A DNA stretch of 42,417 nt from an uncultured Bacilli bacterium (GTDB lineage: Bacteria > Bacillota_I > Bacilli_A > RF39 > UBA660): positions 1 through 42,417 of the forward strand of contig CANRDM010000002.1 of the NCBI GenBank assembly GCA_947629365.1, read 5' to 3'. Position 1 is the stretch's first letter. Each line of letters begins with the position of its first letter. Shown here piece by piece: positions 2,361-35,281 of this stretch. A model generated the notes under the pieces. It did not search any database and had not been told where the DNA came from. It saw nothing but the letters and a program-made list of their open reading frames with translations. Both the position numbers and the translations under genes were made by a program.

Positions 2361-2406
2361 TAACCGAGAAGGAAAACTCGTAAAAACCTCATAGACTTAA
2401 CTCTTT

Positions 2407-2436
2407 GAGAGGGAAATATTTCTCTCTCGTTTTTTG
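2407..2436 (+). terminator. Rho-independent terminator after the surface-protein gene
   Basis: GAGAGGGA-aatatt-TCTCTCTC hairpin (one G-U pair) followed by gTTTTTT. Confidence 0.6.
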
Positions 2437-2500
2437 TAGCTAAAAAGTACTTGCTTAAAATAGATTAAATATTTATAATAAATTGTTATGGAGGAAATGT

Positions 2501-3001: not shown

Positions 3002-3055
3002 TTGTAATTAAAATATTTTATTGATAGAATATTTACTAAACAAGGAGGATGTAAG

Positions 3056-9280: not shown

Positions 9281-9341
9281 TACTTGCATTTTCCGATAAA
9301 ATAAAAGATAATAATTAATATATCAAAAAGAGGTGAATCAA

Positions 9342-13003: not shown

Positions 13004-13039
13004 ATATTTTGTTAAAATATGATTGTTATATGAAGAAAT

Positions 13040-13215
13040 TTGAGGTATATATTGGTACTTTTTAGAGAGTTAGTGGTTGGTGGAAACTAATAAGTTAAGA
13101 TATATTGGTTGCAAATGGAGTATAATATGCAGAAATGCTATATCATTTAATAAGTTAAATTAAAGGTGGTACCGTGCTTATGCACCCTTTTGGTATCATC
13201 TTTTTATTTGAAAAG
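13040..13215 (+). promoter_or_regulatory. T-box riboswitch leader of valS
   Basis: AGAGAG and GGTTGGTGGAAAC stem-I elements. The conserved T-box sequence AAAGGTGGTACCGTG sits at 13162-13176. A downstream helix and a T-run (13201-13210) follow. AAGTTAAG contains a plausible GUU (Val) specifier followed by A. Confidence 0.8.
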
Positions 13216-13224
13216 AGGGATAAG

Positions 13225-15744
13225 ATGTTAGATAAAAAATATGATCAAAATGAAGTAGAGAAAGATAGATATAACTATTGGCTAAATCATCATTATTTTG
13301 AATGTGGTGATACTTCTAAAAAGCCTTATTCAATAGTTATACCTCCCCCTAATGTGACGGGTAAACTACATTTAGGCCACGCTTGGGATACTACTTTACA
13401 AGATATTATTATTCGTTTTAAAAGAATGCAAGGTTATGATTGTTTGTGGCTTCCTGGGACAGATCACGCTGCGATTGCAACGGAAGCTAAAGTTGTAGCT
13501 AGATTAAAAGAACAAGGTATAAATAAATATGCTTTAGGAAGAGAAAAGTTTTTAGAAGAATGTTTTAAATGGACGGATGAACATAAAAGTATTATTCATT
13601 CTCAATGGGCTAAATTAGGATTATCAGTTGATTTAACAAAAGAAAGATTTACTTTAGATGAAGGATTAAGTAATGTTGTTAAATATGTTTTTGTTGATTT
13701 ATATAATAAAGGTTTAATTTACAGAGGAGAGAGGATTATTAACTGGGATCCGGTTGCCAAAACTGCTTTATCAAATGAAGAAGTTATCTATAAAGATATT
13801 GAAGGAGCATTCTATCACCTTAAATATTATCTTGAAGATAGTGATGAGTTTTTAGATGTAGCCACGACTAGACCAGAGACTTTATTTGGGGATACAGCAG
13901 TAGCGGTTAATCCAAAAGATGAAAGATATAATAAGTTAATTGGCAAGAATGTTATTTTACCAATTGTTGGTAAAAAGATTCCTATTGTTGGTGATGAACA
14001 CGCTGATCCATCATTTGGAACTGGTGTTGTTAAAATTACGCCGGCCCACGATCCAAATGACTTTGAAGTTGGTATTCGCCATAATTTAGAGCGAATTAAA
14101 GTTATTAATGAAGATGGTACAATGAATGACAAAGCTTTAAAATATCAAGGAATGGACCGTTTTGCAGCAAGAGATGAATTACTAAAAGATTTAGAAAAAG
14201 AAGATTTGCTTATAAAAATCGAACCAATGGTTCACTCTGTCGGTCACTCTGAAAGAACGAATGCTATTGTGGAACCATACTTGTCTAAGCAATGGTTTGT
14301 AAAGATGGATAGTCTTGCGAAGAAGGTTTTAGAAAATCAAAAAAATAAAGATACTAAAGTTAATTTTGTACCCCCAAGATTTGAAAAAATAATGAATAAT
14401 TGGATGAGTGATTGTCACGATTGGTGTATATCAAGACAACTTTGGTGGGGACATAGAATTCCTGCTTGGTATAAGGGCGATGAGATATATGTTTCTGTTA
14501 ATCCACCTGAGGGTGAAGGATGGATGCAAGATGAAGATGTATTAGATACTTGGTTTTCCAGTGCTTTATGGCCATTTTCTACGATGGGCTGGCCTAATGA
14601 TTTAGAACTTTATAATCGTTATTTTCCAACTGATACTTTAGTTACTGGTTATGATATTATCTTCTTCTGGGTTTGCCGAATGACTTTTCAAAGTTTGGAA
14701 TTTACTGAAAAGAGACCATTTAAACATTGTGTTATCCACGGTTTAATTAGAGATAAACAAGGAAGAAAAATGAGTAAAAGCCTAGGTAATGGTGTTGATC
14801 CAATGGATATGATTGATACTTATGGAGCCGATGCTTTAAGATATTATTTAACGACCTCAACTGCTCCAGGAATGGATTTAAGATTTGATGAAGAAAAGTT
14901 AAAATCAACTTGGAATTTTATTAATAAGTTATGGAATGCTTCTCGTTTTACTTTAATGAATATTGAAGATTTAAAAGATATGCAATTAGATGAATTAAAT
15001 AAACAAGATAAATGGATTTTAACTAAACTCAATAAAACAATTAAAGATGTTACCAAATATATGGAAAAATTTGAATTTAATAATGTTAATTCAATTATTT
15101 ATTCCTTTATTTGGAATGATTTTTGTGATAACTATATTGAAATGGCTAAGTTTAGTAGCGATAGTGTAGGTACTAAAAGCACTTTACTTTATACTTTAAG
15201 CGCTATTTTAAAAATGCTTCATCCATTTATGCCATATGTAACTGACGCAATATATAATGAACTACTAATTAAAGATAGTGAGTCTATTATGATTAGTAGT
15301 TATCCCGTTGTCGATAAAAAATTAATTTTTGCCGATGCTGAAAGTGAAGTTGATGAGATAATTGCTTTTATTAAAAATTATCGTAATGTTATAAAAGAAA
15401 ATAATATTTTAAATACTTATGAAGTTCAAGTTAATTTCACTGAAGAAATTATAATGAAAATGTTAAAACTTCAAGATCATATAATAGATAATCAAAAAGA
15501 TATAACAAAATTTAAAGTAAGTAGTAAAAATTATGAAGCCATTATCTATTATGAAAAAGAGTTAACTAAAGATGATGTCTTACAAAAAGAAAAAAGGATT
15601 GCTGAATTAAAAGCATCAATTAGTAAAAGAGAAGCACTACTTAATAATGAAAACTTTGTAAGTAAAGCACCAGAAGATTTAGTTAATAAAGAAAAAGAAA
15701 AATTAGCTAGTGAAAAAGAAGAACTTAAAAAAATTACTGAATAA
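13225..15744 (+). CDS. valS: Valine--tRNA ligase
   Basis: HIGH-type motif [17 protein letters not shown] motif [10 protein letters not shown], and a C-terminal coiled coil. ATG 13225 follows SD AAGAGGGA. The track start 13174 (GTG) lies inside the T-box. Confidence 0.95.
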
Positions 15745-15786
15745 CTAAAAACTGAATAGGTTTCAATTTCTATTCAGTTTTTAGTT
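15743..15786. terminator. Bidirectional terminator shared by valS and the convergent gene
   Basis: 17-bp perfect stem AACTAAAAACTGAATAG / CTATTCAGTTTTTAGTT with a 10-nt loop. It overlaps both stop codons. Confidence 0.75.
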
Positions 15787-16570
15787 ATGATCTTTTTTTA
15801 CTTCTTACTGCGTATTTTTCATTAATAGCTTTTACTATATCAGCGACTTCTAAATTTGAAAAGTCAGCGCCGTTATCATTAATAAAAAGCATTAGACTAT
15901 ATGCTGCCTTGCTAAGTTCATCATTTTGTAAATAAAAGACAAGTGGTTGATAAACTCCTAGCATTCTTTTATTTTCAATATTTAAATTTTCAGTTAAATG
16001 CTCGTTAGTTCCCGCTAAAACCATTGAAAAACCTTGATTATAAATATCTTCAAGCATTGATCTTCTTAAATATGGTAAGTGTTCCGATGAACCTAGTTTT
16101 TCTAAAGCTTTTTCTTCTGCTAAAATAATAAGTTGGCCCCTTATATCGTAAGAGTCACGATAACCATTGTTTTCACTAAATGAAACAGCTGGAAAATCAA
16201 ATGTTTTTACTCCGTAATTTACTTCATCATTACTTGCTAATTCTCTTAAAACTTCAAGCGTTTTATAATGTTCTTTAATGCTTACATCTTCAATATTTTT
16301 TGTAGCAATTTCATAATTTCGAACTTTAGTTTTTAAACTTTTTTCAAATAAATTATTCATATTTGCTAAAAACATTAGCTTTTCTCTAATTTTTAAAGCT
16401 TCATTCTTTCTACCATAGACCGTTTTTTCATATTCTTTTTCTAAATCAGAAATTTCTAAATAAAGATTATAAAAATCCATAATATCTTCACTAGTAATTA
16501 TATGACCGGTGATTGTTTCATAATCTGATTTAGGATCTAATAAAATATCTTTTAAACTTTTCTTTTCCAT
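15785..16570 (-). CDS. Hypothetical protein (261 aa), co-directional with and downstream of the XRE regulator
   Basis: ORF preceded by AAAGGAA. No recognisable family. Confidence 0.5.
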   Translation of the reverse strand: MEKKSLKDILLDPKSDYETITGHIITSEDIMDFYNLYLEISDLEKEYEKTVYGRKNEALKIREKLMFLANMNNLFEKSLKTKVRNYEIATKNIEDVSIKEHYKTLEVLRELASNDEVNYGVKTFDFPAVSFSENNGYRDSYDIRGQLIILAEEKALEKLGSSEHLPYLRRSMLEDIYNQGFSMVLAGTNEHLTENLNIENKRMLGVYQPLVFYLQNDELSKAAYSLMLFINDNGADFSNLEVADIVKAINEKYAVRSKKRS

Positions 16571-22192: not shown

Positions 22193-24314
22193 CGAAATAA
22201 ATTTTGAAACAATCTATGATAAATTAGACTTTGATGAAAAAACTCTTAAAAAAATAAAAAAGGCCTACCTTTATGCTGCAAATGAATATGCAGGCAAGAA
22301 AAGATTATCGGGGGCTGATTACATTACCCATCCTTTAAATGTAACCAATATTTTAACGGATTTAAATGTTGATGATACCACGATTATTGCCTCTCTTTTA
22401 CACGATGTTTTAGATAAAGGTACTTCGGCAACAAAAGAGGATTTAAAAGAAAAATTTGGCGAAGATGTTGCCAATATTGTTTTAAATGTCTCAAAAATTA
22501 ATAAATTAGAATTACAAGATGAAACGGAAAACTCCAAAATCTATTTAAGAAAAGTTTTAGTTGGTTTAGCAGAGGACCCACGCGTAATTTTTATTAAATT
22601 AGCAGATCGTTTACATAATCTTCGGACAAGTTACGCCGTAAAAGAAGAAAGTAGAAAGAAAACTGCGAAAGAAACAATGGACATTTTAGTGCCAATTGCC
22701 CATCGTCTTGGTATTAATTCTATTAAAAGTGAAATGGAAAACTTATGTTTACAAATTTTAAAACCCGATGTATATAATGATATTTTAGAACGCCTTAATA
22801 ATACAACTAGTGAACTTAATGATAATCTTTTAAAAATGAAAGAAGATTTATCGCATTTATTAATTGATAATGATATTACTTTTGAAATAAAAGGGAGAGT
22901 AAAAAGCGTTTATAGTATTTATCATAAATTACAATCTGGTAAGAATTGGGATAGTATTTATGATATTCTTGCTTTAAGAATATTTGTTAAAACTGAAGCT
23001 TTATGTTATACCGTTATTGGGTTAATTCATTCTAAATATCGTCCTGTTCCGAAAAGATTTAAAGATTATATAGCTAATCCCAAAGAAAATATGTATCAAA
23101 GCTTACATACTACAGTTTTTGGTGATGATGGTAACTTTTATGAAATCCAAGTAAGGACATATGAAATGGATGAAATTGCTGAAAAAGGAATTGCTTCTCA
23201 CTGGTCATATAAAGAAAAAGGGGTGAAGAAGATTCAAACTATTATGGAACAAAAATTAGAAATGTTTCGTAATATTATTGAATCAGCTAGTAATGAAAAT
23301 GATACTAATTTTGAAAATGCAATGACTTATAATCTTTTAGGTGAGCTTATTTATGTTTATACCCCTAAAGGTGATGTTATTGAGCTTCCTAAAGATGCAA
23401 CTCCGATTGACTTTGCTTATCGCATCCATAGTAGAGTTGGTGATACAACAGTCGGTGCCATTGTTAATGATAATATTGTTCCTCTTTCTTATAATTTGCA
23501 AAATAATGATGTTGTTAAAATTATTACTAATAAAGAAGCTTTACCTAGTAATGATTGGTTAAGTTTTGTTAAAACTGAACAAGCTAGATCAAAAATAAAA
23601 GCTTTCTTTAGTAAAAAAGATCGTTTAGAATTAATTGAAAAAGGTAAGAGTATTTTAGAAAAAGAAATTAGAAGAAGAAAACTCGGTTATAATGATATTA
23701 TTAATGATCAAAATTTAAATAAAATATTAAAAGATTTAAAATTAAATAATTTAGAAGATTTATATTTAAGTTTAGGTTCTCTAAGATATACAGCTGGTTA
23801 TATTATTAATTTAACGACGGAAGATAAACATAATATTGATGATGTTTTAATTGAAAAAATAAAACCAAGAATAGATAAAAATAAAAATAATAATGATATC
23901 ATTGTTGATGGTAATACCAATATTATGTATAATTTGGCTAAATGTTGTCGTCCAGTTAAGGGAGATGATATTATTGGGTTTATTACAAAGGGAGAAGGAA
24001 TATCTGTTCATAAAAAAAATTGTCCAAATATTAAAGATGCTAATTTAAGACTGATTGATATTTCTTGGAATAAAGATGCTGATAACACTTACTATACTAA
24101 TGTTGTGTTATTAGTTAGTCAAAATAAGAATTATTTAGCTGATTTAATTGCCCTTGCCACTAAAGAAAAAATTACAATTGCGGAATTTAAAAATAAAGAA
24201 GCTGAAAATGGTACAGTTTGTGAGTTATTAGTAAAAGTTAATAATAAAGATGAACTTGACCGTTTTAAAAGTAAAGTTAATAAACTTAAAAATATTAAAG
24301 TAAGGGAGTCATAA
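22173..24314 (+). CDS. relA: Bifunctional (p)ppGpp synthetase/hydrolase (long RSH)
   Basis: HD domain (HPLNV, LLHDVLD, ADRLHNLRT), synthetase (RVKSVYSIYHKL, YQSLHTTV), TGS (VYTPKGDVIELPKDATPIDFAYRIHSRVG), and an ACT-like C-terminus. Confidence 0.95.
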   Translation: MRKLKDNEINFETIYDKLDFDEKTLKKIKKAYLYAANEYAGKKRLSGADYITHPLNVTNILTDLNVDDTTIIASLLHDVLDKGTSATKEDLKEKFGEDVANIVLNVSKINKLELQDETENSKIYLRKVLVGLAEDPRVIFIKLADRLHNLRTSYAVKEESRKKTAKETMDILVPIAHRLGINSIKSEMENLCLQILKPDVYNDILERLNNTTSELNDNLLKMKEDLSHLLIDNDITFEIKGRVKSVYSIYHKLQSGKNWDSIYDILALRIFVKTEALCYTVIGLIHSKYRPVPKRFKDYIANPKENMYQSLHTTVFGDDGNFYEIQVRTYEMDEIAEKGIASHWSYKEKGVKKIQTIMEQKLEMFRNIIESASNENDTNFENAMTYNLLGELIYVYTPKGDVIELPKDATPIDFAYRIHSRVGDTTVGAIVNDNIVPLSYNLQNNDVVKIITNKEALPSNDWLSFVKTEQARSKIKAFFSKKDRLELIEKGKSILEKEIRRRKLGYNDIINDQNLNKILKDLKLNNLEDLYLSLGSLRYTAGYIINLTTEDKHNIDDVLIEKIKPRIDKNKNNNDIIVDGNTNIMYNLAKCCRPVKGDDIIGFITKGEGISVHKKNCPNIKDANLRLIDISWNKDADNTYYTNVVLLVSQNKNYLADLIALATKEKITIAEFKNKEAENGTVCELLVKVNNKDELDRFKSKVNKLKNIKVRES

Positions 24315-24757
24315 TGAAAGTAGTTATTCAAAGAAGTAAACATAGTAGTGTTTCGATAAATAATAAAGTATATAATGAAATTACTAATGGTTTAGTGATA
24401 TTTAGTTGTTTTACTGAGGATGATACCATTGATGATATTAATTATATTGTCAAAAAGATTACTAATTTAAGAATATTTGATGATGAAAATGGGGTAATGA
24501 ATAAAAGTATTTTAGATTATGGAGGAAGTATTTTATCTATTAGTCAATTTACTTTATATGCTGACACTAAAAAAGGTAATCGCCCTAGTTATATTAAAGC
24601 TTTAAATGGGGAGGAAGCAACTAAACTATATGACACTTTTAATCGGGAATTAAATAAGATTGTACCTACAGTTACTGGCATTTTTGGGGCCGATATGCTT
24701 GTTAATATTGAAAATGATGGCCCCATAACAATTATAATTGACAGCAAAAATAAATAA
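24314..24757 (+). CDS. dtd: D-aminoacyl-tRNA deacylase
   Basis: MKVVIQR..., SQFTLYADTKKGNRPSY, and NIENDGPITIIIDS. Start is coupled to the rel stop (TAATG). Confidence 0.93.
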   Translation: MKVVIQRSKHSSVSINNKVYNEITNGLVIFSCFTEDDTIDDINYIVKKITNLRIFDDENGVMNKSILDYGGSILSISQFTLYADTKKGNRPSYIKALNGEEATKLYDTFNRELNKIVPTVTGIFGADMLVNIENDGPITIIIDSKNK

Positions 24758-24942
24758 TGTTACTAGACTTAAGTATGCTTAGAATTCAAAAACTAAATTA
24801 AATCATAACTATGGTATTACATCACGTTCAATTAAAGAAGCTAAAATGCTATTTGAATATTTATGTAATTTTTATCAAGATGAATATTTAAAATCTTTAG
24901 AAATGGTTACTCCTAAACATATTTTAGAAAGAAAAAATTAAA

Positions 24943-24971
24943 TTGACAATTAGAATATAACACTTTATAAT
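24943..24971 (+). promoter_or_regulatory. Perfect consensus sigma-A promoter in front of the paralogue array
   Basis: TTGACA (24943-24948), a 17-nt spacer, and TATAAT (24966-24971). SD AAAGGAG and ATG 25001 follow. Confidence 0.75.
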
Positions 24972-25000: not shown

Positions 25001-25645
25001 ATGAATAGTAAAAACGTAGATAATAGCCAATTAGATTTGTATGATATTTTCCAAGAAAATTTCGCAATTAAAAAAAGAGCTAATGAACAAATTAAAAAAA
25101 AGAATCAATTAGAAGATAAAATTTATAAAGAAAGTATGCTTTTCCAAATACCAAGGCGAGACTTTGCCGAAGTTGAAAATATTATTGCTCTAAAAAAGAA
25201 TTTAGAATTTTACTTTTATGAGTTATTGCCGCTTTTTATTCAAGAAGCAATAATAAGAGGCGAAACCCAATTAGAATCTATAGATTATAACCGTTTAGGA
25301 TTATCTATTAAAAATGACTTATATTATATACTTCATAAGAGCAAATTTTTTGTATCCCAATATGATGGGCATCATTATTATTTTCCTTCTGATTCAGATG
25401 ATTGTAAATTTAATTTATATCTTAAAAATTTCATTGAACAATATAATTTAGGAGAAATGAATGAAAAATTTTTATCAGATAATGTATATACAGTTGAGTT
25501 GCAAGCATCTTTTAAAGATTTAGTTTATGCTTGTTATGTTGGTGAAGAGTGGGTTAAGTATTTAGAAGATGCGTGTATAGATTTATTAAGTGATTACTTT
25601 AATGAAGAACAATTAAAAAGTTATAAAAAAGGCAGAAGGCTATAG
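25001..25645 (+). CDS. Family A paralogue 1 (unknown function, acidic, no signal peptide)
   Basis: Shares LDLYDIFQENF, KKNLEFYFYELLPLFI and DLVYACYVGEEWVKYLEDACIDLLSDYFNEEQL with the other A members. Confidence 0.8.
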   Translation: MNSKNVDNSQLDLYDIFQENFAIKKRANEQIKKKNQLEDKIYKESMLFQIPRRDFAEVENIIALKKNLEFYFYELLPLFIQEAIIRGETQLESIDYNRLGLSIKNDLYYILHKSKFFVSQYDGHHYYFPSDSDDCKFNLYLKNFIEQYNLGEMNEKFLSDNVYTVELQASFKDLVYACYVGEEWVKYLEDACIDLLSDYFNEEQLKSYKKGRRL

Positions 25646-25661
25646 AATGGTGAGTTAGATA

Positions 25662-26198
25662 ATGGAAAATAGTGAAAAATTAAATAATATAACAAATGAG
25701 CAATTAAAAATAAAACTTTCAGAAACTAGTGATGATTATTATCATACATATTGTGCTTATAGAGAAGTTGAAAGATTAGTCGGTTTTAAAAGAAATCTAG
25801 AGTTTTTCTTTTATGAATTACTTCCACTTTATATTAAAGAAAAAGATGATAAAGATCAAAAGATTTCTATTAAATTAAATTTACTTTTTGATGATAAAAC
25901 GTCCAAATATTTTTATGCAATAGATGATGATAAATTTTATTTTTTACCTTCCCAATCTCATAATTGGTTTGATTTTTTTCTTATTACATTCATTAATGAA
26001 TATAATTTAAGAAAAACAGATAAAGAGGATTTTTTTTCTAAGGATTACAATATTAATATTGAAGCATCCTTAAAAGATTTAATGTATGCTTGCTATATTG
26101 GCGAAGAGTGGGTTAAGTATTTAGAAGATGGTTGCTTAGAATTATTAAGTGATTATTACAGTGAAGAACAACTAAAGAAATATCAAAGAAGAAGATAA
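25662..26198 (+). CDS. Family A paralogue 2 (shorter; divergent N-terminus)
   Basis: KRNLEFFFYELLPLYI and DLMYACYIGEEWVKYLEDGCLELLSDYYSEEQL. Lacks the LNLYDIF N-terminal motif. Confidence 0.8.
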   Translation: MENSEKLNNITNEQLKIKLSETSDDYYHTYCAYREVERLVGFKRNLEFFFYELLPLYIKEKDDKDQKISIKLNLLFDDKTSKYFYAIDDDKFYFLPSQSHNWFDFFLITFINEYNLRKTDKEDFFSKDYNINIEASLKDLMYACYIGEEWVKYLEDGCLELLSDYYSEEQLKKYQRRR

Positions 26199-26221
26199 TA
26201 AAATTGAAGGAGGCTTTGGTA

Positions 26222-26827
26222 ATGTATATACTTGATAAAAATAATGGTGGGATTGATCTTTATACAATTACTGCTAAAAAAGAAGAATTAAAAGAATATA
26301 GGAAAAATATTATAAATGCCCAAAAAGATAAACTATTTTATTATATATTATCTAAAAATAGTAGAGTTCTTAAAGATTTTACTTCTTTAGAAGAAATTGA
26401 TTTAGATAATATTCCTTATAATAAAAAATTGGTTTCTTTTCTTAATGATCTTATTAATTATGATGACTCATCTTATCATAGAATGATTCATCAATATATT
26501 GATGGTGATAATATAACGGATGATTATCTTAATGGTTTAAAAGATAATAATATACCAATTAAAGTAATTTCTGCAAACGAAGAATTTTACTATTTAGTAC
26601 CTAAGATATGGCAAATTGATTACAATAACTTTATGTTAAGACAAGTAATGAGATTATCAAAAGAATTATATTTATTACATTTGCTTCTTTTAGGAAAATA
26701 TGAAAAATTAGCAAGTGAACCAACGCTTGAACAATTAGAGTTATTTAATATTGAATATATTAAAACAATCACTATAGAAGAATTAGCATATTTAATTAAT
26801 TCTAAATATGCCAGCAAGTGCTTATGA
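26222..26827 (+). CDS. Family B paralogue 1 (C-terminal tail displaced into another frame)
   Basis: MYILDKNNGGIDLYTITAKKEELKEYRKNI and LLHLLLLGKYEKL...EQLELFNIEY. SD GAAGGAGG precedes ATG 26222. The homologous tail ...YDSIIKKAELDGQILQKRRK is encoded in a shifted frame at 26808-26885. Confidence 0.7.
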   Translation: MYILDKNNGGIDLYTITAKKEELKEYRKNIINAQKDKLFYYILSKNSRVLKDFTSLEEIDLDNIPYNKKLVSFLNDLINYDDSSYHRMIHQYIDGDNITDDYLNGLKDNNIPIKVISANEEFYYLVPKIWQIDYNNFMLRQVMRLSKELYLLHLLLLGKYEKLASEPTLEQLELFNIEYIKTITIEELAYLINSKYASKCL

Positions 26828-26897
26828 TAGCATTATTAAAAAAGCTGAATTAGATGGTCAAATTTTACAAAAAAGAAGAAAATAAAGGAGAAGTTAT

Positions 26898-27635
26898 ATG
26901 TACATATATGATAAAAAGGCTGATAGTATAGTTTTGTATACTATTGAAGCTAAAAAGGAAGCGTTAAGAGAATATAAGCGAAAAATACTTGAGGCAAATG
27001 ATAAAGATTTATTATATCATTTGATAACTAATAGTGCTGAGGCCATAGAAAAATTTATAAATTCTAGTGAATTATCTATAAATGATCTTGATTTTTTTAC
27101 TCCAGCTAGTTCCTCTAATGATTCAATTAGTAGTTCATTTAATCCCATTTCTGGAACAAGTAATATTGCTACTTTAGAAAATAAAGTTGCCCATTATTTT
27201 AATAATAGTGCTTCATTTAAAGCTTATATTTATAATGATTATATTTATACATTAAAAAAATATATTGAAGGTAAATTTGATGATTATTCACTTAAAAAGG
27301 TCACTAATAAAAAAGGACATTATTTTTATCTTTTAAGAACAGAAAATTTTGATTTAATTGATTGTTATCAAGATGACTCATATTATATAATTAATGATAT
27401 CATTAAATTACCAAGAGATTTACAAATATTACAATTATTATTACAAGGTAGATATAGTGAGATTGGCAGTTTACCGCCTGAACAATTAAAACTTTTCAAT
27501 ATTAAATATTGTAAAAGCATTAAAATAAGTGATATTGAAGATTTATATGCAATTGGCTTAGTTAGTGGTAAATTTGAAGATACAATGAGAAAAGTATCAA
27601 GTTCATCACGTATATTGCAAAAATATAAAAAATAA
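26898..27635 (+). CDS. Family B paralogue 2
   Basis: MYIYDKKADSIVLYTIEAKKEALREYKRKILEAND..., ...YFYLLRTE..., LPRDLQILQLLLQGRYSEI, and SSSSRILQKYKK. Confidence 0.8.
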   Translation: MYIYDKKADSIVLYTIEAKKEALREYKRKILEANDKDLLYHLITNSAEAIEKFINSSELSINDLDFFTPASSSNDSISSSFNPISGTSNIATLENKVAHYFNNSASFKAYIYNDYIYTLKKYIEGKFDDYSLKKVTNKKGHYFYLLRTENFDLIDCYQDDSYYIINDIIKLPRDLQILQLLLQGRYSEIGSLPPEQLKLFNIKYCKSIKISDIEDLYAIGLVSGKFEDTMRKVSSSSRILQKYKK

Positions 27636-27654
27636 AGAAAGAGGTATAGAAAAG

Positions 27655-28305
27655 ATGGAAAATGCAAAAAAGATGGATAAAGGAGCTTTAAATTTATATG
27701 ATATTTATAAAGAAAGCTATGAAATAAGTAGTAGAGTAAAAGCTGTATATGATAAGCAAAAACAGTTAAGTGATGAACTATTTGAGTATTGTAATCACAA
27801 TTTTGTTAATAGAAAAAATTTTGAAGAAGTAGAAAGCGTTCTTGGTCTTAAAGAAAATTTATCTTTTTTCTTTTATAAATTTATCCCATTTGTAATTCAA
27901 AATTATTTATTAAAAAATCAAAATAGTATTAAATCTTTAGATGCAAATGAATATAAAATATCTACTAATTTTAGATTAAGTTATAAGACAAGTATTTATA
28001 AACATATTAGTTATGAAGATGAAAATATAGAATTTCCTTTACCTTATGATTCTGATTATTATCATTTTGAAGAAATACTTATTAAATTTATTGAAGAACT
28101 TAATTTAGGTACGATTAAAATGTTAAATTCTCAATTTGGCTTAGATTATTCTATTTTAATTGAAACTTCATTACAAGATTTAATATATGCTTGTTATCTA
28201 GGAGAAGAATTGGTTAAAGTTTTAGAAGATGAATGTATTGATTTATTAAGTGATTACTTTAGTGAAGAACAATTAGCAAATTTTAAGAAAACTCTACATA
28301 GGTAA
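27655..28305 (+). CDS. Family A paralogue 3
   Basis: LNLYDIYKESYEI, LKENLSFFFYKFIPFVI, and DLIYACYLGEELVKVLEDECIDLLSDYFSEEQLANFKKTLHR. Confidence 0.8.
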   Translation: MENAKKMDKGALNLYDIYKESYEISSRVKAVYDKQKQLSDELFEYCNHNFVNRKNFEEVESVLGLKENLSFFFYKFIPFVIQNYLLKNQNSIKSLDANEYKISTNFRLSYKTSIYKHISYEDENIEFPLPYDSDYYHFEEILIKFIEELNLGTIKMLNSQFGLDYSILIETSLQDLIYACYLGEELVKVLEDECIDLLSDYFSEEQLANFKKTLHR

Positions 28306-28326
28306 TATTTAAATAAGGAGATTATA

Positions 28327-29058
28327 ATGTACATATATGATAAAAAAGATGATAGTATAGTTTTGTATACTATTGAAGCTAAAAAAGAAGAATTAAAAAG
28401 ATATAAGCGAAAAATAATTGAAGCAAATGATGCTGATTTATTATATTATTTAATAACTACTGTAGTAACAACTAAAGACCGATTTGTAAATTCCGAAGAA
28501 CTAGCTATAAGTGATATTGTATATGGACCTGAGTGGACTATTCCTGGGAGAATTCAATCAAATTTAAGAAAATGTGGTGGTACAAAAAACATAGCATATT
28601 TAAAAGAATTATGTTTAAGGTTTCATGCAATTGGTTGGCCGCCTGATCGAGAGGATGAATGCGAAGAACAAATAAATTTAATTGAACAATACATTAATGG
28701 TGATTTTGATAATATTCCATTAATAAGAATTATTGAAGAAAACAATCATGATTTTTATCTTTTAAGAACAGAAGCAGCGAAAACAATTATGTATGGTAGC
28801 TTTTGGGTTATCGATAACATTATTAAATTACCGAGAAGTTTACAAATACTACAATTATTATTACAAGGTAAATATGAAAAAATAAATGAGGCAGAAATTA
28901 CTGATCAACTAAAGCTATTTAATATTAATTATTATGATAGCGTCAAGCTAAATAACATTAGAGATATGCATATAACAGAATCAGCTAATGACTCTTATGA
29001 ATCTATTTTAGAAAAAGTTTCTTCTGGGTCACGTATATTACAAAAATATAAAAAATAA
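28327..29058 (+). CDS. Family B paralogue 3
   Basis: MYIYDKKDDSIVLYTIEAKKEELKRYKRKIIEAND..., FYLLRTE, LPRSLQILQLLLQGKYEKI, and SSGSRILQKYKK. Confidence 0.8.
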   Translation: MYIYDKKDDSIVLYTIEAKKEELKRYKRKIIEANDADLLYYLITTVVTTKDRFVNSEELAISDIVYGPEWTIPGRIQSNLRKCGGTKNIAYLKELCLRFHAIGWPPDREDECEEQINLIEQYINGDFDNIPLIRIIEENNHDFYLLRTEAAKTIMYGSFWVIDNIIKLPRSLQILQLLLQGKYEKINEAEITDQLKLFNINYYDSVKLNNIRDMHITESANDSYESILEKVSSGSRILQKYKK

Positions 29059-29077
29059 AGAAAGAGGTATAGAAAAG

Positions 29078-29728
29078 ATGGAAAATGAGAAAATGAAGAA
29101 TAATGATGATTTAAATTTATATGATATTTTTAAAGAAAATTATGAAATAGGACAAAGAGTAGAAGCTGCACATAATAAGAAAAAACAATTAAGAGATGAG
29201 TTATTTGATTATGGCTCTATTAATATAGCTAATAGAAATCAATTTAATGAAGTAGAAAGAATAATTGACCTTAAAAAGAATTTAATATTTTTCTTTTCCA
29301 AGTTTATGCCTTTTTTGATTCATACCTATTTATTAGAAAATCATAAAGATATTAAATCATTAGATGTTAGTAAATGTAAAATATCAGCTGATTTTACCTT
29401 GAGTTATGACGAAAAATCTTACAAGTATATTTATTATGGTAAATCTTTTTACATTTTACCTTCTGATTCTGATTATAATAATTTTAATGAATTACTTGTA
29501 AACTTTATTAATGAATATCATTTAGGAACAATTGAGAAGAGAAAATCTGATGATACTGTAGAATTAATTTATTTTATAACTATAAATACTTCATTAAAAG
29601 ATTTAATATATGCTTGCTATGTAGGTGAAGAATGGATTAAACATATAGAAGATGAATGCCTTACTATATTAAGTGATTATTATAGTGAAGAACAATTAGC
29701 AAGTTTTAAGAAAACTCTCCATAGGTAA
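29078..29728 (+). CDS. Family A paralogue 4
   Basis: MENEKMKNNDDLNLYDIFKENYEIG... and DLIYACYVGEEWIKHIEDECLTILSDYYSEEQLASFKKTLHR. Confidence 0.8.
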   Translation: MENEKMKNNDDLNLYDIFKENYEIGQRVEAAHNKKKQLRDELFDYGSINIANRNQFNEVERIIDLKKNLIFFFSKFMPFLIHTYLLENHKDIKSLDVSKCKISADFTLSYDEKSYKYIYYGKSFYILPSDSDYNNFNELLVNFINEYHLGTIEKRKSDDTVELIYFITINTSLKDLIYACYVGEEWIKHIEDECLTILSDYYSEEQLASFKKTLHR

Positions 29729-29759
29729 TAAAAATATAAAATAACGAAAGGAAAAAATT

Positions 29760-30392
29760 ATGGATAAAGAAAAAATAATGAATGGTGATGCTTTAAGTTT
29801 ATATGAAATCTTTAAAGAAAGTAAGGAAGCACAAAATATGGAAGATGAAATAAACGATGCTATAGGACGATTGCAGGATAAAATGATTTATACAAACTTA
29901 TCATCATATCAAAAAGATTTTGCAAAAATAGAAAGTCTTATTTACCTTAGGAAAAATCTAGAGTTTTATTTCTATCAATTTTTACCATTTTTTATTAAAA
30001 AAACTATTTTAAATAGTAAAAGAAAGTTAAATATTACTCATTCTGTGGCTTTCAAACATATTTTTTACTGTTATCCCGGTGGATGCAAGGGCTTTGAAGC
30101 AGAAGACAAGCTTATCTATTGTTTACCAGCCCAAATTAATGGTAAAGCATTTGTTTTTCATTTAAAAAATTTTATTACACAATATGAATTAGGTAAAATG
30201 GATAGAAGGATTCCTGATAAGGAATATGAATATAACGTTAGAATACATACTACATTAAGAGATTTAATATATGCTTGTTATATAGGACAAGAATGGGTTA
30301 AATCTTTAGGAGAAGAATGTATTGACATATTAAGTGATTATTATAGTGAAGAACAATTAGATAGTTTTAAGAAAACTCTTCATAGACAATAA
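29760..30392 (+). CDS. Family A paralogue 5
   Basis: LSLYEIFKESKE, RKNLEFYFYQFLPFFI, and DLIYACYIGQEWVKSLGEECIDILSDYYSEEQLDSFKKTLHRQ. Confidence 0.8.
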   Translation: MDKEKIMNGDALSLYEIFKESKEAQNMEDEINDAIGRLQDKMIYTNLSSYQKDFAKIESLIYLRKNLEFYFYQFLPFFIKKTILNSKRKLNITHSVAFKHIFYCYPGGCKGFEAEDKLIYCLPAQINGKAFVFHLKNFITQYELGKMDRRIPDKEYEYNVRIHTTLRDLIYACYIGQEWVKSLGEECIDILSDYYSEEQLDSFKKTLHRQ

Positions 30393-30424
30393 AAATATAA
30401 AATAAAAAAAGAGGTATAGAAAAG

Positions 30425-31075
30425 ATGGAAAATGAGAAAATGAAGAATAATGAGGATTTAAATTTATATGATGTTTTTAAAGAAAATTATGAAATAGGAA
30501 GAAGAGAAAACGTTAATGAAAGAACAGAGCTTCTGAACACCGAACTATTCTTTTACGGTCACGATTACTTATTTTATCAAAGTGATTTTGTAGAAGTAGA
30601 AAGTATTCTTGGCCTTAGAAAAAATTTAGAATTTTTCTTTTCCAAGTTCTTACCCTTCTTGATTCATGAAGTTTTAAGAAAAAAACAAACCAAGATTAAT
30701 TCTCTAGATGCCAGTGAATTGGCAATATTTTCTAAATTTGAATTGCATTTTTTGACAAAAGAAAATAAAACCATTTTTTATTGTGATAACCATTCGGAAT
30801 ATTTTTTACCTTCTAATCACGATTATAGTAATTTTGATGAATTACTTACAACATTTATTATTGAATATCATTTAGGAACAGTGGTTGAGAATTGTAATCA
30901 TCCTCAAGGAAAAATATATTATATTGCCATAGATACAACATTGAAAGATTTAATATATGCTTGTTATATAGGACAAGAATGGGTTAAATCTATAGGAGAT
31001 GATTGTATTGATTTACTTAGCGATTATTATAGTGAAGAACAATTAGAAAATTACAAAAAAACTCTTCATAGATAA
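30425..31075 (+). CDS. Family A paralogue 6
   Basis: MENEKMKNNEDLNLYDVFKENYEIG... and DLIYACYIGQEWVKSIGDDCIDLLSDYYSEEQLENYKKTLHR. Confidence 0.8.
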   Translation: MENEKMKNNEDLNLYDVFKENYEIGRRENVNERTELLNTELFFYGHDYLFYQSDFVEVESILGLRKNLEFFFSKFLPFLIHEVLRKKQTKINSLDASELAIFSKFELHFLTKENKTIFYCDNHSEYFLPSNHDYSNFDELLTTFIIEYHLGTVVENCNHPQGKIYYIAIDTTLKDLIYACYIGQEWVKSIGDDCIDLLSDYYSEEQLENYKKTLHR

Positions 31076-31119: not shown

Positions 31120-31325
31120 AATATAAATATTTTCTATAAAAAGACAAGTAATTTATTAAATGAATTTTTAAAGAGAAGACGGTTGGTGAGAAAGTCAAAT
31201 AATTTAATAAATGAAGACACTTTTAGATAAATAGAAACGCACTTAGTGTGATAAATTTTAAGACCTAAAGTAAGGTGGTACCGCGGGAAGACTCGCCCTT
31301 ATGAATAGGTCTTTTTATTTTTTAG
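31120..31325 (+). promoter_or_regulatory. T-box riboswitch leader of the hisS-aspS-asnS-gatCAB operon
   Basis: AAGAGAAGACGGTTGGTGAGAAAG stem-I elements. The candidate specifier region is GAAGACAC (GACAC at 31216-31220). The T-box sequence is TAAGGTGGTACCGCGG (31271-31286). The terminator pairs AGACCTA (31261-31267) with TAGGTCT (31306-31312), followed by a T-run. Confidence 0.85.
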
Positions 31326-31338
31326 AAAGGATGATTAA

Positions 31339-32601
31339 ATGATAACTAAACCAAAAGGAACTATTGATATTACGGGAAGTGATTCTCTATTATGGGAATA
31401 TGTTAATTCAGTTGTAAGTACAATGATGGCTACTTATAATTATGAATATATTAGAACCCCAATTTTTGAAGCAAGTGAATTATATCACCGCTCAGTAGGA
31501 GAATCATCAGATATCGTAAAAAAAGAAACTTACGATTTTAAAGATAAAGGAGATCGTAATTTAACTTTAAGGCCAGAAGGAACAGCAGGTGTAGTAAGAA
31601 GTTACTTAGAAAATAAAGAGTATGCATCACCTGATGTAAAAAAATACTATTATAATGGCACAATGTATCGTTATGAAAGACCCCAAGCGGGAAGACTTAG
31701 GGAATTTACCCAATTTGGAGTGGAAGTTCTTGGGAGTGACGATCCAATTATTGATGCGGAAGTAATTAGTTTACAATATAAAATTTTAGAAGCCCTACAT
31801 ATTAGTAATTTACAAGTAAATATTAATACTTTAGGTGATGAAGAATCAAGGATTAAATATCGTGATGCTTTAGTCAAATATTTAGAACCACATCTAGATC
31901 TATTATGTGATGATTGTAAAGAAAGATTTAAAACTAATCCTTTAAGAATACTAGATTGTAAAGTTGATGCGGAAAGCCCGATTTTAAAAAAGGCTCCTAA
32001 AACAATCGATTATCTAACAAAGGATGCTAAAGAAAGATTTACAACAGTATTAAAATATTTAGATTTATTAGAAGTTGATTACGAAGTAAATCCTAAAATA
32101 GTAAGAGGTCTTGATTATTATGATCATACTGTTTTTGAAATAGTGTCCTTAGATAGTGATGAGACAAGACAAAGTGTTTTAGGTGGTGGCGGTAGATACA
32201 ATAAATTAATTAAAGAATTAGGGGGTAAAGATAATTATGGAATTGGTTTTGCCTGTGGAGTTGACCGGATAATTGCCTTACTTAAAGAAATTGATTTATA
32301 TCAAAATGTCAAAAAAGAAATTGATTGCTATGTAATGTATGTGTCTGAAGAAGAAAAATTAAATGCTCTTCCGATTGTCCAAAACTTAAGACTTAATGGA
32401 GTCGTTGTTGAGACAAATAATTTAAATAAAGGCTTAAAAGGACAATTTAATGAAGCTGATCGTCTTGATGCTAAATTTTTAATTATTTTAAATAATGAAG
32501 ATTTAAAATTAGGTTTAGTTAATGTTAAAGATAATCATACTAAAGAAGAGGTTAAAATAGATATTTCGGAAATAGTTGATTACATTATTAGTAATTTGTA
32601 G
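31339..32601 (+). CDS. hisS: Histidine--tRNA ligase
   Basis: Class II motifs LRPEGTAGVVRSY, YRYERPQAGRLREFTQFGVE, and GGGGRYNKL...GFACGVDR. Confidence 0.95.
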   Translation: MITKPKGTIDITGSDSLLWEYVNSVVSTMMATYNYEYIRTPIFEASELYHRSVGESSDIVKKETYDFKDKGDRNLTLRPEGTAGVVRSYLENKEYASPDVKKYYYNGTMYRYERPQAGRLREFTQFGVEVLGSDDPIIDAEVISLQYKILEALHISNLQVNINTLGDEESRIKYRDALVKYLEPHLDLLCDDCKERFKTNPLRILDCKVDAESPILKKAPKTIDYLTKDAKERFTTVLKYLDLLEVDYEVNPKIVRGLDYYDHTVFEIVSLDSDETRQSVLGGGGRYNKLIKELGGKDNYGIGFACGVDRIIALLKEIDLYQNVKKEIDCYVMYVSEEEKLNALPIVQNLRLNGVVVETNNLNKGLKGQFNEADRLDAKFLIILNNEDLKLGLVNVKDNHTKEEVKIDISEIVDYIISNL

Positions 32602-32608
32602 GAGGATT

Positions 32609-33898
32609 ATGAAAAGAGAATTAATAAATGAATTAAGTGAAGAAAAAATAGCTCGCATTAGTGGTTGGGCTGAGACAATAAGAGATACTAAATATATGAT
32701 TTTTATCATTTTAAAAGATGCTAGTGGCAAAATACAAGTATCTATTGATAAAGAAAATAATAAAGATATTGTAAATGCTCTTGAAGGTATTCTTCAAAAT
32801 AGTATCTTAGAATTTACAGGTGTAATGAAATTAAGTGAATACGTTAAAAATGGTGGTAAAGAGTTTATTCCGGAAAGTGTTAAAATCTTAAGTAAGGCCG
32901 AAAAACTACCTCTTGATGAGACGGCAAATATTGATACACGCCTAGATTATAGATGGATAGATTTAAGAAGTGCTAAAAACAATTTAATGCTTAAAGTTCA
33001 ATCAGCATTTGTTGATGGTATGCGATCATTTTTAATTAAGGAAAATTTTACGGAGATTCATACGCCTAAATTAATTGCGACAGCCTCTGAATCAGGTAGC
33101 GATGTTTTTGAAGTAAAATATTTTGATAGAAAAGCTTATCTTGCCCAAAGCCCTCAATTTTATAAACAAATGGCTATTGCCAGTGGCTTAGAAAGAATAT
33201 TTGAAATTGCCCCGGCCTTTAGAGCGGAAAATTCTAATACAAATCGTCATACCACTGAGTTTACTTCTTTTGACTTAGAATTTGCTTATATTGATTCATA
33301 TGAAGATGTAATGGATATGGAAGAAGAGCTTTTAATCGCCGGTTTAACTAACGTTAAAAATTTATATGCAAAAGAAATTAAAGAATTATTTGGTGAAGAT
33401 GTAATTATTCCTAAAAGACCATTTCCAAGAATTAAATTACAAGATTTATATCAAGAATTAAATAAAAGATATAATTATGAAATACCAGCTTATGATATTG
33501 GGGATATGAATGCTGAAGCAGAAAAATTAACGAGTCAATATGCTAAAGAAGTTTATGATAGTGAGTTTATCTTTGTAACAGATTTTGCGAAGACTAAAAG
33601 AGCTTTTTATCATATGCGTAAAGATGATATTCCCCAAGGCTTTGACCTTATATGGAAAGGTACGGAAATAACTACGGGAGCCCAAAGAGAGCATCGTTAT
33701 GAAGAGCTTAAAAAACAAGCCGAAGAAAAAGGATTGGCTAAAGATGTGGAATTTTACTTACAATTCTTTAAGTATGGTTGCCCTCCACACGGTGGATTTG
33801 CTATTGGCGTTGACCGTCTTACAATGCTTTTACTTGGTATTTCATCTTTAAAAGAAGAAATGTTTATTTTTAGGGGTCCATCAAGACTTACCCCTTAA
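32609..33898 (+). CDS. aspS: Aspartate--tRNA ligase, short archaeal/eukaryotic type (~430 aa, no GAD insertion)
   Basis: FRAENSNTNRHTTEFTSFDLE, and PPHGGFAIGVDRLTMLL. SD AGGAGG precedes ATG 32609; the track start 32576 overlaps hisS and is unlikely. Confidence 0.85.
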   Translation: MKRELINELSEEKIARISGWAETIRDTKYMIFIILKDASGKIQVSIDKENNKDIVNALEGILQNSILEFTGVMKLSEYVKNGGKEFIPESVKILSKAEKLPLDETANIDTRLDYRWIDLRSAKNNLMLKVQSAFVDGMRSFLIKENFTEIHTPKLIATASESGSDVFEVKYFDRKAYLAQSPQFYKQMAIASGLERIFEIAPAFRAENSNTNRHTTEFTSFDLEFAYIDSYEDVMDMEEELLIAGLTNVKNLYAKEIKELFGEDVIIPKRPFPRIKLQDLYQELNKRYNYEIPAYDIGDMNAEAEKLTSQYAKEVYDSEFIFVTDFAKTKRAFYHMRKDDIPQGFDLIWKGTEITTGAQREHRYEELKKQAEEKGLAKDVEFYLQFFKYGCPPHGGFAIGVDRLTMLLLGISSLKEEMFIFRGPSRLTP

Positions 33899-33916
33899 TA
33901 GAAAGGATTATTTAAT

Positions 33917-35281
33917 ATGGATTTAAGAGATTTATTTAGTGATACAAAAAAATATTTAAATAATGAAGTAACTATCTGTGGTTGGATAAGATTACATCGT
34001 GATCAAAAAACTTTTGGCTTTATTGATTTTTCTGATGGTACTTGTCAAACTCATTTGCAAGTTGTATACGATGAAAAATTAACTAATTTTAGCGATGTTC
34101 AAAAGTTTTTAGTGGGTTCAGCTATTTCAGTAACAGGAGTAGTTGTGGAATCAAAAGGTAATCAAGAAATTGAATTACAAGCAAGTAATATCACTCTTTT
34201 AGGTGATTGTCCCGAAGATTATCCGATTCAACCTAAAAGACATACAAGAGAATTTTTAAGAGAACAAGCATATCTAAGGCCAAGAACTAATCTTTTCCAA
34301 GCTGTTTTTAGAGTAAGAAGTATTGCTGCCTATGCTATTCATAAATATTTCCAAGAAAGAGGTTATGTTTATTTTCACGCCCCTTTAATTACTGCAAGTG
34401 ATTGTGAAGGAGCCGGTGAGATGTTTCAAGTAACGACTTTACCAATAGATAAAATTAAGGGTGAAGTAGATTATAGTAAAGATTTCTTTGGTAAACTAAC
34501 AGGGCTAACCGTAAGTGGTCAATTAGAAGCGGAAACATTTGCAATGGCTTATAAAAAAACTTATACTTTTGGGCCAACTTTTAGAGCAGAAAATTCTAAT
34601 ACCAAAACCCATGCTGCTGAATTTTGGATGATTGAACCAGAAATTGCCTTTTGTGATTTAGAAGGGGATATGGACATAATGGAAGATATGCTTAAATATA
34701 TTGTTAAATATGTTTTAGATAACGCTAAAGAAGAAATTAATTTCTTTGATGCTTTTGTCGAAAAAGGCTTAAAAGAAAAACTTGAAAAACTTATTAATAG
34801 TAAGTTTGTAAGAATTGATCATAAAGATGTAATTAAACTATTAAAAGAAGCTCCAGTTAAATGGGAATTTGAACCAGTTTATGGTGGTGATATTGCTAAA
34901 GAACACGAAAAATATATTACTGAATACTTTAATGGACCAGTCTTTATCAAAAATTGGCCAAAAGATATTAAAGCTTTCTATATGAAATTAAATCCTGATA
35001 ATGAAACCGTGGCGGCGGTTGATTTAGAAGTACCGGGAGCTGGTGAATTAATGGGTGGTAGTCAAAGAGAAGAAAATTACGATAAACTTATTAAAAGAAT
35101 GCAAGAATTAAAGATGAGTGATAATGGTCTAGAATGGTATTTAAATCTTCGTCGTTATGGTGGTTGTGTTCATTCTGGCTTTGGAATGGGATTTGAAAGA
35201 CTTTTAATTTATTTAACTGGTGTTGATAATATTAGAGATGTTATTCCTTATCCAAGAACACCAAAATCTTGTGATTATTAA
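33917..35281 (+). CDS. asnS: Asparagine--tRNA ligase
   Basis: FRAENSNTKTHAAEFWMIEPE, GGSQREE, and HSGFGMGFERLL. Confidence 0.9.
   Translation: MDLRDLFSDTKKYLNNEVTICGWIRLHRDQKTFGFIDFSDGTCQTHLQVVYDEKLTNFSDVQKFLVGSAISVTGVVVESKGNQEIELQASNITLLGDCPEDYPIQPKRHTREFLREQAYLRPRTNLFQAVFRVRSIAAYAIHKYFQERGYVYFHAPLITASDCEGAGEMFQVTTLPIDKIKGEVDYSKDFFGKLTGLTVSGQLEAETFAMAYKKTYTFGPTFRAENSNTKTHAAEFWMIEPEIAFCDLEGDMDIMEDMLKYIVKYVLDNAKEEINFFDAFVEKGLKEKLEKLINSKFVRIDHKDVIKLLKEAPVKWEFEPVYGGDIAKEHEKYITEYFNGPVFIKNWPKDIKAFYMKLNPDNETVAAVDLEVPGAGELMGGSQREENYDKLIKRMQELKMSDNGLEWYLNLRRYGGCVHSGFGMGFERLLIYLTGVDNIRDVIPYPRTPKSCDY

Follow-up and report, generated by a model that had tools for sequence, protein, structure and literature searches.

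The acquired interbacterial defense clusters of gut Bacteroidales are grouped here with the poly-immunity, or orphan immunity, islands of polymorphic toxin systems as one comparison for the locus described below. Such islands (Zhang et al. 2012, PMC3482391) resemble it in carrying immunity-sized genes without a toxin, varying between strains, being laterally exchanged in the gut community, and evolving fast. A second parallel is offered by the strings of esaG genes (DUF600, downstream of esaD in Staphylococcus aureus) and tipC genes (Streptococcus) of type VII secretion systems (T7SS). In the account by Garrett et al. (2022, PMC9484751), these strings consist of many non-identical, co-directional paralogues that encode small cytosolic proteins and have similar 5′ and 3′ ends around a variable middle; the conserved 5′ and 3′ homology blocks mediate recombination between tandem paralogues, which generates gain, loss, and mosaicism, and the repertoires vary by strain. 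Here, we describe an array that shares these traits. It occupies positions 25001-31075 of a stretch of 42,417 nucleotides (hereafter the window; contig CANRDM010000002.1, assembly GCA_947629365.1) from an uncultured Bacilli bacterium and comprises nine open reading frames (ORFs) of 178-245 amino acids, all on the + strand, in the order A A B B A B A A A, where A and B denote two protein families.

The array encodes small soluble proteins with a variable center, has its own promoter, and displays gene turnover, recombination, cassette exchange, and differences between strains; these properties are hallmarks of conflict-related recognition repertoires. Because the array shares these hallmarks and parallels the esaG and tipC strings, an orphan immunity-type repertoire is ranked first among the explanations considered below. 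Under this tentative proposal, which may well prove wrong, the array would encode diversified cytosolic proteins that act as immunity-type binders; we infer the binding, the immunity, and the division of labor between ends and center. It would constitute an island that occupies one fixed place in the chromosome (dtd/hisS), differs between strains, is driven by recombination, and is transcribed from a predicted strong promoter of its own. The products would form a repertoire of small, soluble, mostly acidic, and apparently non-enzymatic proteins from two lineage-restricted families, with specific protein binding in a conflict setting as their likely role. In particular, each copy would use its variable center to neutralize an incoming toxin, or comparable antagonist, of its own, and fold, oligomerization, or docking would be supplied by the conserved parts. 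Unequal crossing-over and gene conversion between the conserved blocks, together with the exchange of cassettes among sister species, would reshape the repertoire.

Two Protein Families in One Tandem Array

An earlier note on this DNA, made from the sequence alone, had described nine co-directional ORFs of two paralogous families, and the ORFs were found exactly where it had placed them (Table 1). Families A (six proteins) and B (three proteins) are mutually unrelated (hhalign probability 0.4%), and family membership is well above chance, with profile E-values of 1e-60 to 1e-100. Pairwise identity is 36-57% among the six A proteins, whose full-length alignment contains 35 invariant columns, and 29-48% among the three B proteins. 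Each of the nine genes is preceded by a GGAG-type ribosome-binding site, and in GC content the array (22-26%) resembles the surrounding DNA. The products are uniformly rich in tyrosine (16-21 residues per protein), and seven of the nine have an isoelectric point of 4.8-5.3, the exceptions being A5 (6.5) and B2 (7.6). As had been noted earlier for the N-termini, hydrophobic segments are absent from all nine proteins (maximum KD19 ≤1.3). No hidden extra copy of either family was found elsewhere in the window or among the neighbors of distant B homologues.

The conserved framework of family A comprises a helix segment at approximately residues 60-85, C-terminal helices, and the tail LSDYYSEEQLxSFKKTLHR; that of family B comprises an N-terminal β-hairpin followed by a helix, an LPxSLxLLxLLxxG helix, a QLxLF motif, and a C-terminal helix. 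In both families the central region is diversified, and the invariant residues are mostly hydrophobic or structural, with no catalytic-looking conserved residues among them. The terminal motifs are somewhat less uniform than first described. The N-terminal motif attributed to all six A proteins is missing from the short subtype A2, which lacks LNLYDIF (LNLYDIFKENYEI), and the SRILQKYKK tail attributed to all three B proteins is present in B2 and B3 and lost from the frameshifted B1. The probable start of B1 is the ATG at 26222 rather than the TTG at 26204. Compared with its intact orthologue in L002 (221 amino acids, 92% identical), a locus version from the same species, B1 carries a small deletion (within 26780-26885) that shifts the frame and removes the conserved C-terminal helix, and its tail is kept in the +1 frame; this copy is probably on its way to loss. 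The spacers agree with the reported 12-32 nt except between B1 and B2, where the gap is 70 nt because the frameshift has displaced the conserved tail. One duplication of a B-A unit, with a period of 1423 nt, is visible in the array, and A3 belongs to this repeat; repeats at the junctions within the array are 85-94% identical.

Conserved ends around a variable center might also be expected of secreted proteins, with the ends as targeting signals and the center as the active part. A and/or B would then be exported effectors or substrates of a non-Sec, T7SS-like system. Both ends are conserved and modeled with low confidence; the N-terminal helix of A is long, and its tail contains DYYSEE, a YxxxE-like motif. 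We take these to be the kind of features that could act as T7SS signals. However, neither a signal peptide, a WXG or LXG domain, a toxin-like domain, nor a nearby secretion gene was found, nor does a small immunity-like gene accompany each copy, which makes export very unlikely.

Selection, Recombination, and Exchange of Cassettes

According to Nei-Gojobori counts, which pool non-independent pairs of few sequences and are crude and indicative throughout, the ratio of nonsynonymous to synonymous substitution (dN/dS, or ω) between within-species orthologues is 0.21-0.78 in the array, against 0.04-0.16 in relA, dtd, and hisS; most array orthologue pairs fall at 0.2-0.5. On these counts, the array genes are functional and under weaker constraint than their flanks. 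Purifying selection is not uniform over the whole length of the genes. Among pairs with dS <0.5, ω is 0.13-0.32 in the conserved blocks, 0.57-1.13 in the center of A, and 0.89 and 1.48 in two segments of B, the highest value being that of residues 141-160. Thus, the contrast between conserved ends and diversified centers that had been read from the sequence is matched by uneven constraint (approximately 0.13-0.3 in the blocks and 0.6-1.5 in the centers).

Two different processes account for the conservation of the ends. The C-terminal block of A shows a synonymous divergence (pS) of 0.39-0.50, like the rest of the gene; as the block is conserved though its synonymous sites have diverged, it is therefore kept by selection on the protein, and gene conversion alone is ruled out as the cause. 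At the 5′ ends of A4 and A6, codons 1-27 share 95% DNA identity (pS 0.05), followed by an abrupt drop to 50% (pS 0.89) in codons 28-60. This sharp boundary therefore delimits a gene-conversion tract, and for the 5′ block conversion is accepted as the explanation. The earlier suggestion that the ends are conserved for docking can consequently be only part of the answer, since the A4/A6 5′ block owes its conservation to recent conversion.

Between species, shared cassettes have pS values of 0.11-0.24, that is, 2-4 times lower than the 0.42-0.54 of relA and hisS (Fisher p 7e-4 to 1.5e-18). For example, pS between B3 and its counterpart in L011 is 0.11 (relA 0.50), and that between A2 and its counterpart in L001 is 0.24 (relA 0.53). 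Because the synonymous divergence of the cassettes lies below that of the flanks, cassettes have therefore been exchanged laterally among sister species. Antigenic variation from silent cassettes, as in pilS or vls systems, was also considered and ruled out: a start codon and a ribosome-binding site are present in every copy, and export signals are absent throughout.

The presence of several frameshifted or truncated copies and the orphan status of both families would be expected if the genes were decaying or selfish filler without organismal function, or ORFs mis-called in AT-rich DNA. It is highly improbable that they are. The ORFs, all preceded by a ribosome-binding site, extend over 178-245 amino acids in DNA with a GC content of only 22-26%; most orthologue pairs have a dN/dS of 0.2-0.5, and ω in the conserved blocks is 0.13-0.3 despite diverged synonymous sites. 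Moreover, the structural model of B is confident (pTM 0.84) and the promoter is conserved.

Content of the dtd-hisS Site in Relatives

In all A-bearing contigs, the array genes sit between dtd and hisS, and the content of the site ranges from 1 to 9 array genes. Where C denotes a gene for a Cys-cluster protein (see below), the order from dtd is C(278 aa)-A in L027; C, a frameshifted A2-type copy, a B stub, B, and A, after which the contig ends, in L011; C-A-A-B-A-A-A-A in L001; C-A-B-B-A-A-A in L002; the same as L002 with the deletion of C seen in the window in L005 and L028; B-B-IS110-B-frameshifted A in L006; and a remnant of C followed by A-A-B(frameshifted)-B-A-B-A-A-A in the window. L002 and the window come from one species (98% identity of RelA and HisS), yet L002 lacks A1, A3, and B3 and has an intact C. 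Grouping at 80% identity yields 11 types of A (17 genes, four genomes) and 5 types of B (10 genes, five genomes). Frameshifted copies include B1 in the window, A in L006, and the A2-type gene in L011. These data bear out the variability in copy number and gene content that had been anticipated, both between and within species, and no single-copy, invariant orthologue occupies the site.

The proposal that B followed by A forms a two-component module has fared less well. Where both families are present and the array is complete (four cases), the ratio of A to B is 6:3, 6:1, 4:2, or 1:3; L027 has A without B, and other organisms have B without A. As the ratio is unfixed and each family is found without the other, an obligatory B-A module is therefore unsupported; a single duplication of a B-A unit was seen.

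An IS110-family transposase gene (7576-8838, - strand) lies inside the array of L006, a sister species. Both C and the array promoter are missing from this locus, where the spacer found before C in the other loci instead separates dtd from B.

The Cys-Cluster Gene C

Intact C is the first gene of the locus in relatives and encodes a protein of 367 amino acids with a YkgJ-like Cys cluster. The pattern C-x2-C-G-G-x-C-C ... C ... C-x-L-x-Y-x-x-R-P is kept in four orthologues and in distant metagenomic relatives, and identity is 75-76% among three species and 38% to L027. In the window, C survives as a remnant that is 95% identical to C residues 326-367 (tblastn). The same deletion junction is found in the metagenome contigs L028 and L005, and therefore intact and deleted alleles of C co-exist in the population. 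C has been lost at least twice, once through this deletion allele and separately in L006.

C resembles the YkgJ/CxxCxxCC family of putative zinc- or iron-chelating proteins (PF03692) in its Cys pattern and in a weak match of the isolated Cys-rich domain (18.4 bits, E 0.0035). It differs in that this score is under the cut-off of 23, in having extra, unmatched N- and C-terminal regions, and in being represented in the window by a remnant only. Full-length C had no match in Pfam; scans of C against NCBIfam, PHROGs, and PADLOC and a PDB sequence-profile search gave no credible match, and the literature on YkgJ function yielded nothing useful. That C might be a secreted polymorphic toxin was ruled out in view of its conservation across species, its lack of a trafficking domain, and the housekeeping contexts of its relatives. 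An unrelated metagenomic Firmicute (L030, 7530-8459) encodes, between acpP and rnc, a distant relative of C with 309 amino acids and two tandem CxxCGGxCC domains; the Cys-cluster domain therefore represents a wider, uncharacterized family.

The position of C raises the question of whether this protein, in the service of ordinary cell physiology, has lineage-specific partners, substrates, or assembly factors in A and, to a secondary degree, in B, in which case the array would be a neutral or dosage-driven tandem amplification undergoing birth-and-death drift at a recombination-prone site. In three loci (L001, L002, and L027), C is the immediate upstream neighbor of the first A; in L011, the gene after C is a frameshifted A2-type copy. 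L027, the minimal locus, consists of C and one A, and the only A of L006, which has no C, is frameshifted. The good conservation of C among species, the finding of its Cys-rich domain, singly, in a housekeeping context (acpP-X-rnc) of another bacterium, and the matching GC content of the array and its surroundings fit this explanation too. However, C has been lost repeatedly, whereas six intact A genes under purifying selection remain in the window; a separate promoter for the array lies downstream of C, and B is unlinked to C outside this clade. Moreover, cassette exchange between species and locally raised ω would be unexpected for a dosage amplification. Overall, a partnership with C is rather unlikely as the explanation of the array.

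Distribution, Known Relatives, and Folds

Among 5.8 billion proteins, family A forms 22 clusters. When 1.84 billion representatives were searched exhaustively with HMMER, 6 matches were returned, all close, so that remote relatives, which had been sought by this profile search, did not emerge. All named records with family A are rabbit-gut metagenome-assembled genomes titled 'uncultured Bacilli bacterium'. Family B comprises 21 clusters and includes some proteins of 20-35% identity from other metagenomes (other uncultured gut Bacilli). The contexts of these distant homologues include ileS-B-C39/ABC exporter with four GG-leader peptides, ftsW-B-DHH-comEA-comEC, DUF218-B-udg, and one tandem B-B pair. 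In L013 (3983-7791), a distant B homologue lies 112 nt upstream of genes for a C39-peptidase ABC exporter, a membrane protein of 137 amino acids, and four double-glycine-leader peptides of 39-48 amino acids. This arrangement is a class II bacteriocin-type locus, a context suggestive of immunity.

Both families had been reported as unrecognized, and every library tried here agrees, with no credible match and, in particular, none to a housekeeping family. Pfam, NCBIfam, PHROGs, and PADLOC returned chance-level matches only for A and B. A Pfam hmmscan of the nine array proteins and 19 members of family B gave nothing consistent and nothing above cut-off; the matches in PADLOC-DB 2.0 (anti-phage defense) were to Cas2 (E 0.012) and AbiEii (E 0.005), both at approx. 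14 bits. Among type II toxin-antitoxin domains, the sole match was PHD_like in B2 (E 0.19), and A and B show no fixed pairing. PDB sequence-profile searches with A and B found nothing. Among the scanned proteins, P0035 was considered as a YlxM-like DNA-binding protein and rejected: it scores 19.6 bits in NCBIfam (cut-off 128), and its AlphaFold2 (AF2) model has a β-strand where the helix-turn-helix would be. No relatives of the array were found in PHROGs, IMG/VR contigs, INPHARED phages, or PLSDB plasmids (the last two by tblastn), and thus an origin from a phage, plasmid, or viral contig was ruled out.

The AF2 model of A4 (pLDDT 77, pTM 0.64) consists of a long N-terminal helix (residues 14-87), a β-rich center (101-172), and C-terminal helices; that of B3 (pLDDT 87, pTM 0.84) has a mixed α/β fold. 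The tail LSDYYSEEQLxSFKKTLHR is the most conserved segment of A (ω approx. 0.16), yet it has the lowest model confidence (pLDDT 54-70). It is possible that this conserved yet poorly modeled segment is a docking motif that folds on a partner. At E ≤1e-3, Foldseek found no match in PDB for the A4 and B3 models or in BFVD for the B3 model. The non-significant leads are a NikR C-terminal/ACT-like domain for the center of A (E 0.014, probability 0.94, TM 0.22-0.35) and recurrent PAS/LOV matches for B (E 0.2-3).

As NikR/ACT-like and PAS/LOV domains are ligand-binding sensors, these weak leads would suit an array of diversified intracellular sensors or decoys that respond to phage proteins or small molecules and signal through their conserved ends to an effector encoded elsewhere, as an unrecognized defense or regulatory module. 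The variable center and conserved ends, the strain variability, and the lateral exchange also fit such a module. Nevertheless, all fold matches are below significance and PADLOC gave no match, no effector domain (nuclease, TIR, protease, or pore-former) occurs in or beside any locus version, and the phage, IMG/VR, and plasmid collections hold no relatives, so that a sensor or decoy role is unlikely.

Evidence For and Against an Immunity-Type Repertoire

Like an immunity island, the array encodes small, cytosolic, non-enzymatic proteins in tandem, is strain-variable, and evolves fast. Its evolutionary behavior, in particular, resembles that of the esaG and tipC strings, and in this respect the comparison with poly-immunity or orphan immunity islands made in the earlier note is plausible; the locus has, however, no toxin or secretion gene and no known immunity domain. 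The specific similarity to DUF600/EsaG arrays is not borne out, since no DUF600 match was obtained in Pfam and the neighbors of the array are relA, dtd, hisS, and aspS. The array further differs from the esaG and tipC strings in lacking TipC homology, in having no gene for a T7SS or a toxin in or around the locus, in consisting of two interleaved, unrelated families instead of one, and in being confined to a tiny clade. Its 3′ block is conserved mainly as protein (pS 0.23-0.64) and not as DNA.

Several observations weigh against immunity. No toxin, toxin cassette, nuclease, or phage gene and no T7SS/LXG/WXG, Rhs, contact-dependent inhibition (CDI), or MuF gene was found in the 42-kb window or in the six locus versions compared (the window, L001, L002/L005/L028, L006, L011, and L027). 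No similarity to described immunity families such as Imm, SUKH, SMI1-KNR4, DUF600, or TipC appeared in Pfam, PDB profile, or Foldseek searches. Family A is limited to one genus-level clade of rabbit-gut Bacilli, and distant B homologues are mostly single-copy genes in unrelated housekeeping neighborhoods. The minimal locus of L027, with one A beside the conserved C, hints at an ordinary cellular partnership. Poly-immunity islands usually mix many widespread families and often lie on mobile elements with recombinases, whereas the array has two orphan families in a core housekeeping run and no integrase, the IS110 element of L006 being incidental. Finally, the ω values come from the crude counts described above. 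Confidence is held down in particular because of the missing toxin or secretion system, the missing immunity homology, the narrow distribution of A, and the C-A minimal locus.

Accordingly, the immunity-type repertoire keeps its first rank as a tentative proposal. The wider formulation, namely that A and B are two previously undescribed families whose members make up a hypervariable repertoire for recognition in the cytosol (either as immunity proteins directed at unknown interbacterial toxins or as intracellular sensors) that is kept at a fixed core-genome hotspot and traded as cassettes among sister species, is doubtful, though it deserves consideration.

Chromosomal Setting and Boundaries

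The window is ordinary chromosome, with rpsB, tsf, gmk, valS, holA, mnmA, a flippase gene, relA, dtd, the array, hisS, two aspS/asnS-type genes, gatCAB, and mreC. The earlier description of the array as lying on an accessory insertion is apt in that the genes are inserted into a conserved run of housekeeping genes; no mobile element is recognizable, however, and the flanks are core genes. The promoter-like site recurs identically at the same position (after C and before the first A) in L001, L002, L011, and L028, and a near-match with TTGACG is found in L027. Downstream, 51 nt separate the end of the array from the T-box leader of hisS. The score of this leader (63.3 bits; its E-value is from a local search) is below the Rfam gathering score of 93, because of which it is overlooked at the default threshold.

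Table 1. Features of the array and its boundaries in the window.
Feature	Position	Strand	Description
dtd (D-aminoacyl-tRNA deacylase)	24314..24757	+	upstream boundary; adjoins array in all relatives
Dead gene C remnant	24760..24941	+	internal deletion of ~300 codons, start lost; translation ...LNHNYGITS, junction, RSIKEAKMLFEYLCNFYQDEYLKSLEMVTPKHILERKN, stop
Sigma-70 promoter-like site	24943..24971	+	TTGACA-17-TATAAT, 12/12 consensus match; 30 nt upstream of A1
A1	25001..25645	+	family A, 214 aa; divergent type, best counterpart ≤44% identical in the other four genomes compared
A2	25662..26198	+	family A, 178 aa, short subtype; orthologues in L001 and L002 88-89% identical
B1	26222..26827	+	family B; 3′-end frameshift, family tail out of frame at 26808-26885
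B2	26898..27635	+	family B, 245 aa; L002 orthologue 94% identical
A3	27655..28305	+	family A, 216 aa; no copy in same-species strain L002
B3	28327..29058	+	family B, 243 aa; no copy in L002; 83-90% identical copies in L006 and L011 (other species)
A4	29078..29728	+	family A, 216 aa; first 81 nt converted with A6
A5	29760..30392	+	family A, 210 aa; top orthologue dN/dS, 0.78 vs L002
A6	30425..31075	+	family A, 216 aa; final array gene
hisS T-box leader	31127..31303	+	RF00230, 63.3 bits, E 1e-13, full-length model match; downstream insertion boundary

Other observations were made along the same run of genes. Downstream of the array, an AspRS-like gene of 440 codons (archaeal/eukaryote-type length) is followed by a paralogue of 454 codons (32576-35281); in L006 (12165-15293), the first synthetase position is taken by a bacterial-type AspRS of 579 amino acids with a GAD domain, so that the synthetase gene differs between sister species. 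Between hisS and aspS, L002 carries a gene for a CAP-domain protein of 432 amino acids (12859-14157) that is not in the window, which makes this spot another indel site within the run of housekeeping genes. Ribosomal protein S2 (4006-5064) has 352 amino acids and, as an unusual extension, a C-terminal Rho_N-like domain (residues 318-350, E 1.5e-9). The region 10321-13003 has a very low GC content (0.18-0.20) and two ORFs of 625 and 271 amino acids without a Pfam match; the ORFs at 1806-3847, 9333-10241, and 15785-16570 (- strand) likewise have none.

Implications

For now, the practical value of the locus is limited, as the host is uncultured and A is confined to one clade. The array presents two orphan families on the known theme of variable tandem immunity-like arrays, and the fold of B, which has no match in PDB or BFVD, may be new. 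Whatever its function, the array is a clean natural birth-and-death hotspot within a rigid housekeeping run (relA-dtd/hisS-aspS), in which gene conversion and the interspecies exchange of cassettes can be measured. If A and B do form a recognition repertoire, a new pair of immunity or defense families would have been found without the cognate weapon. If the immunity-type reading is true, poorly known gut Bacilli would have two new protein families, probably with new folds, for toxin neutralization, and an undiscovered toxin system in the rabbit cecal community would be indicated.

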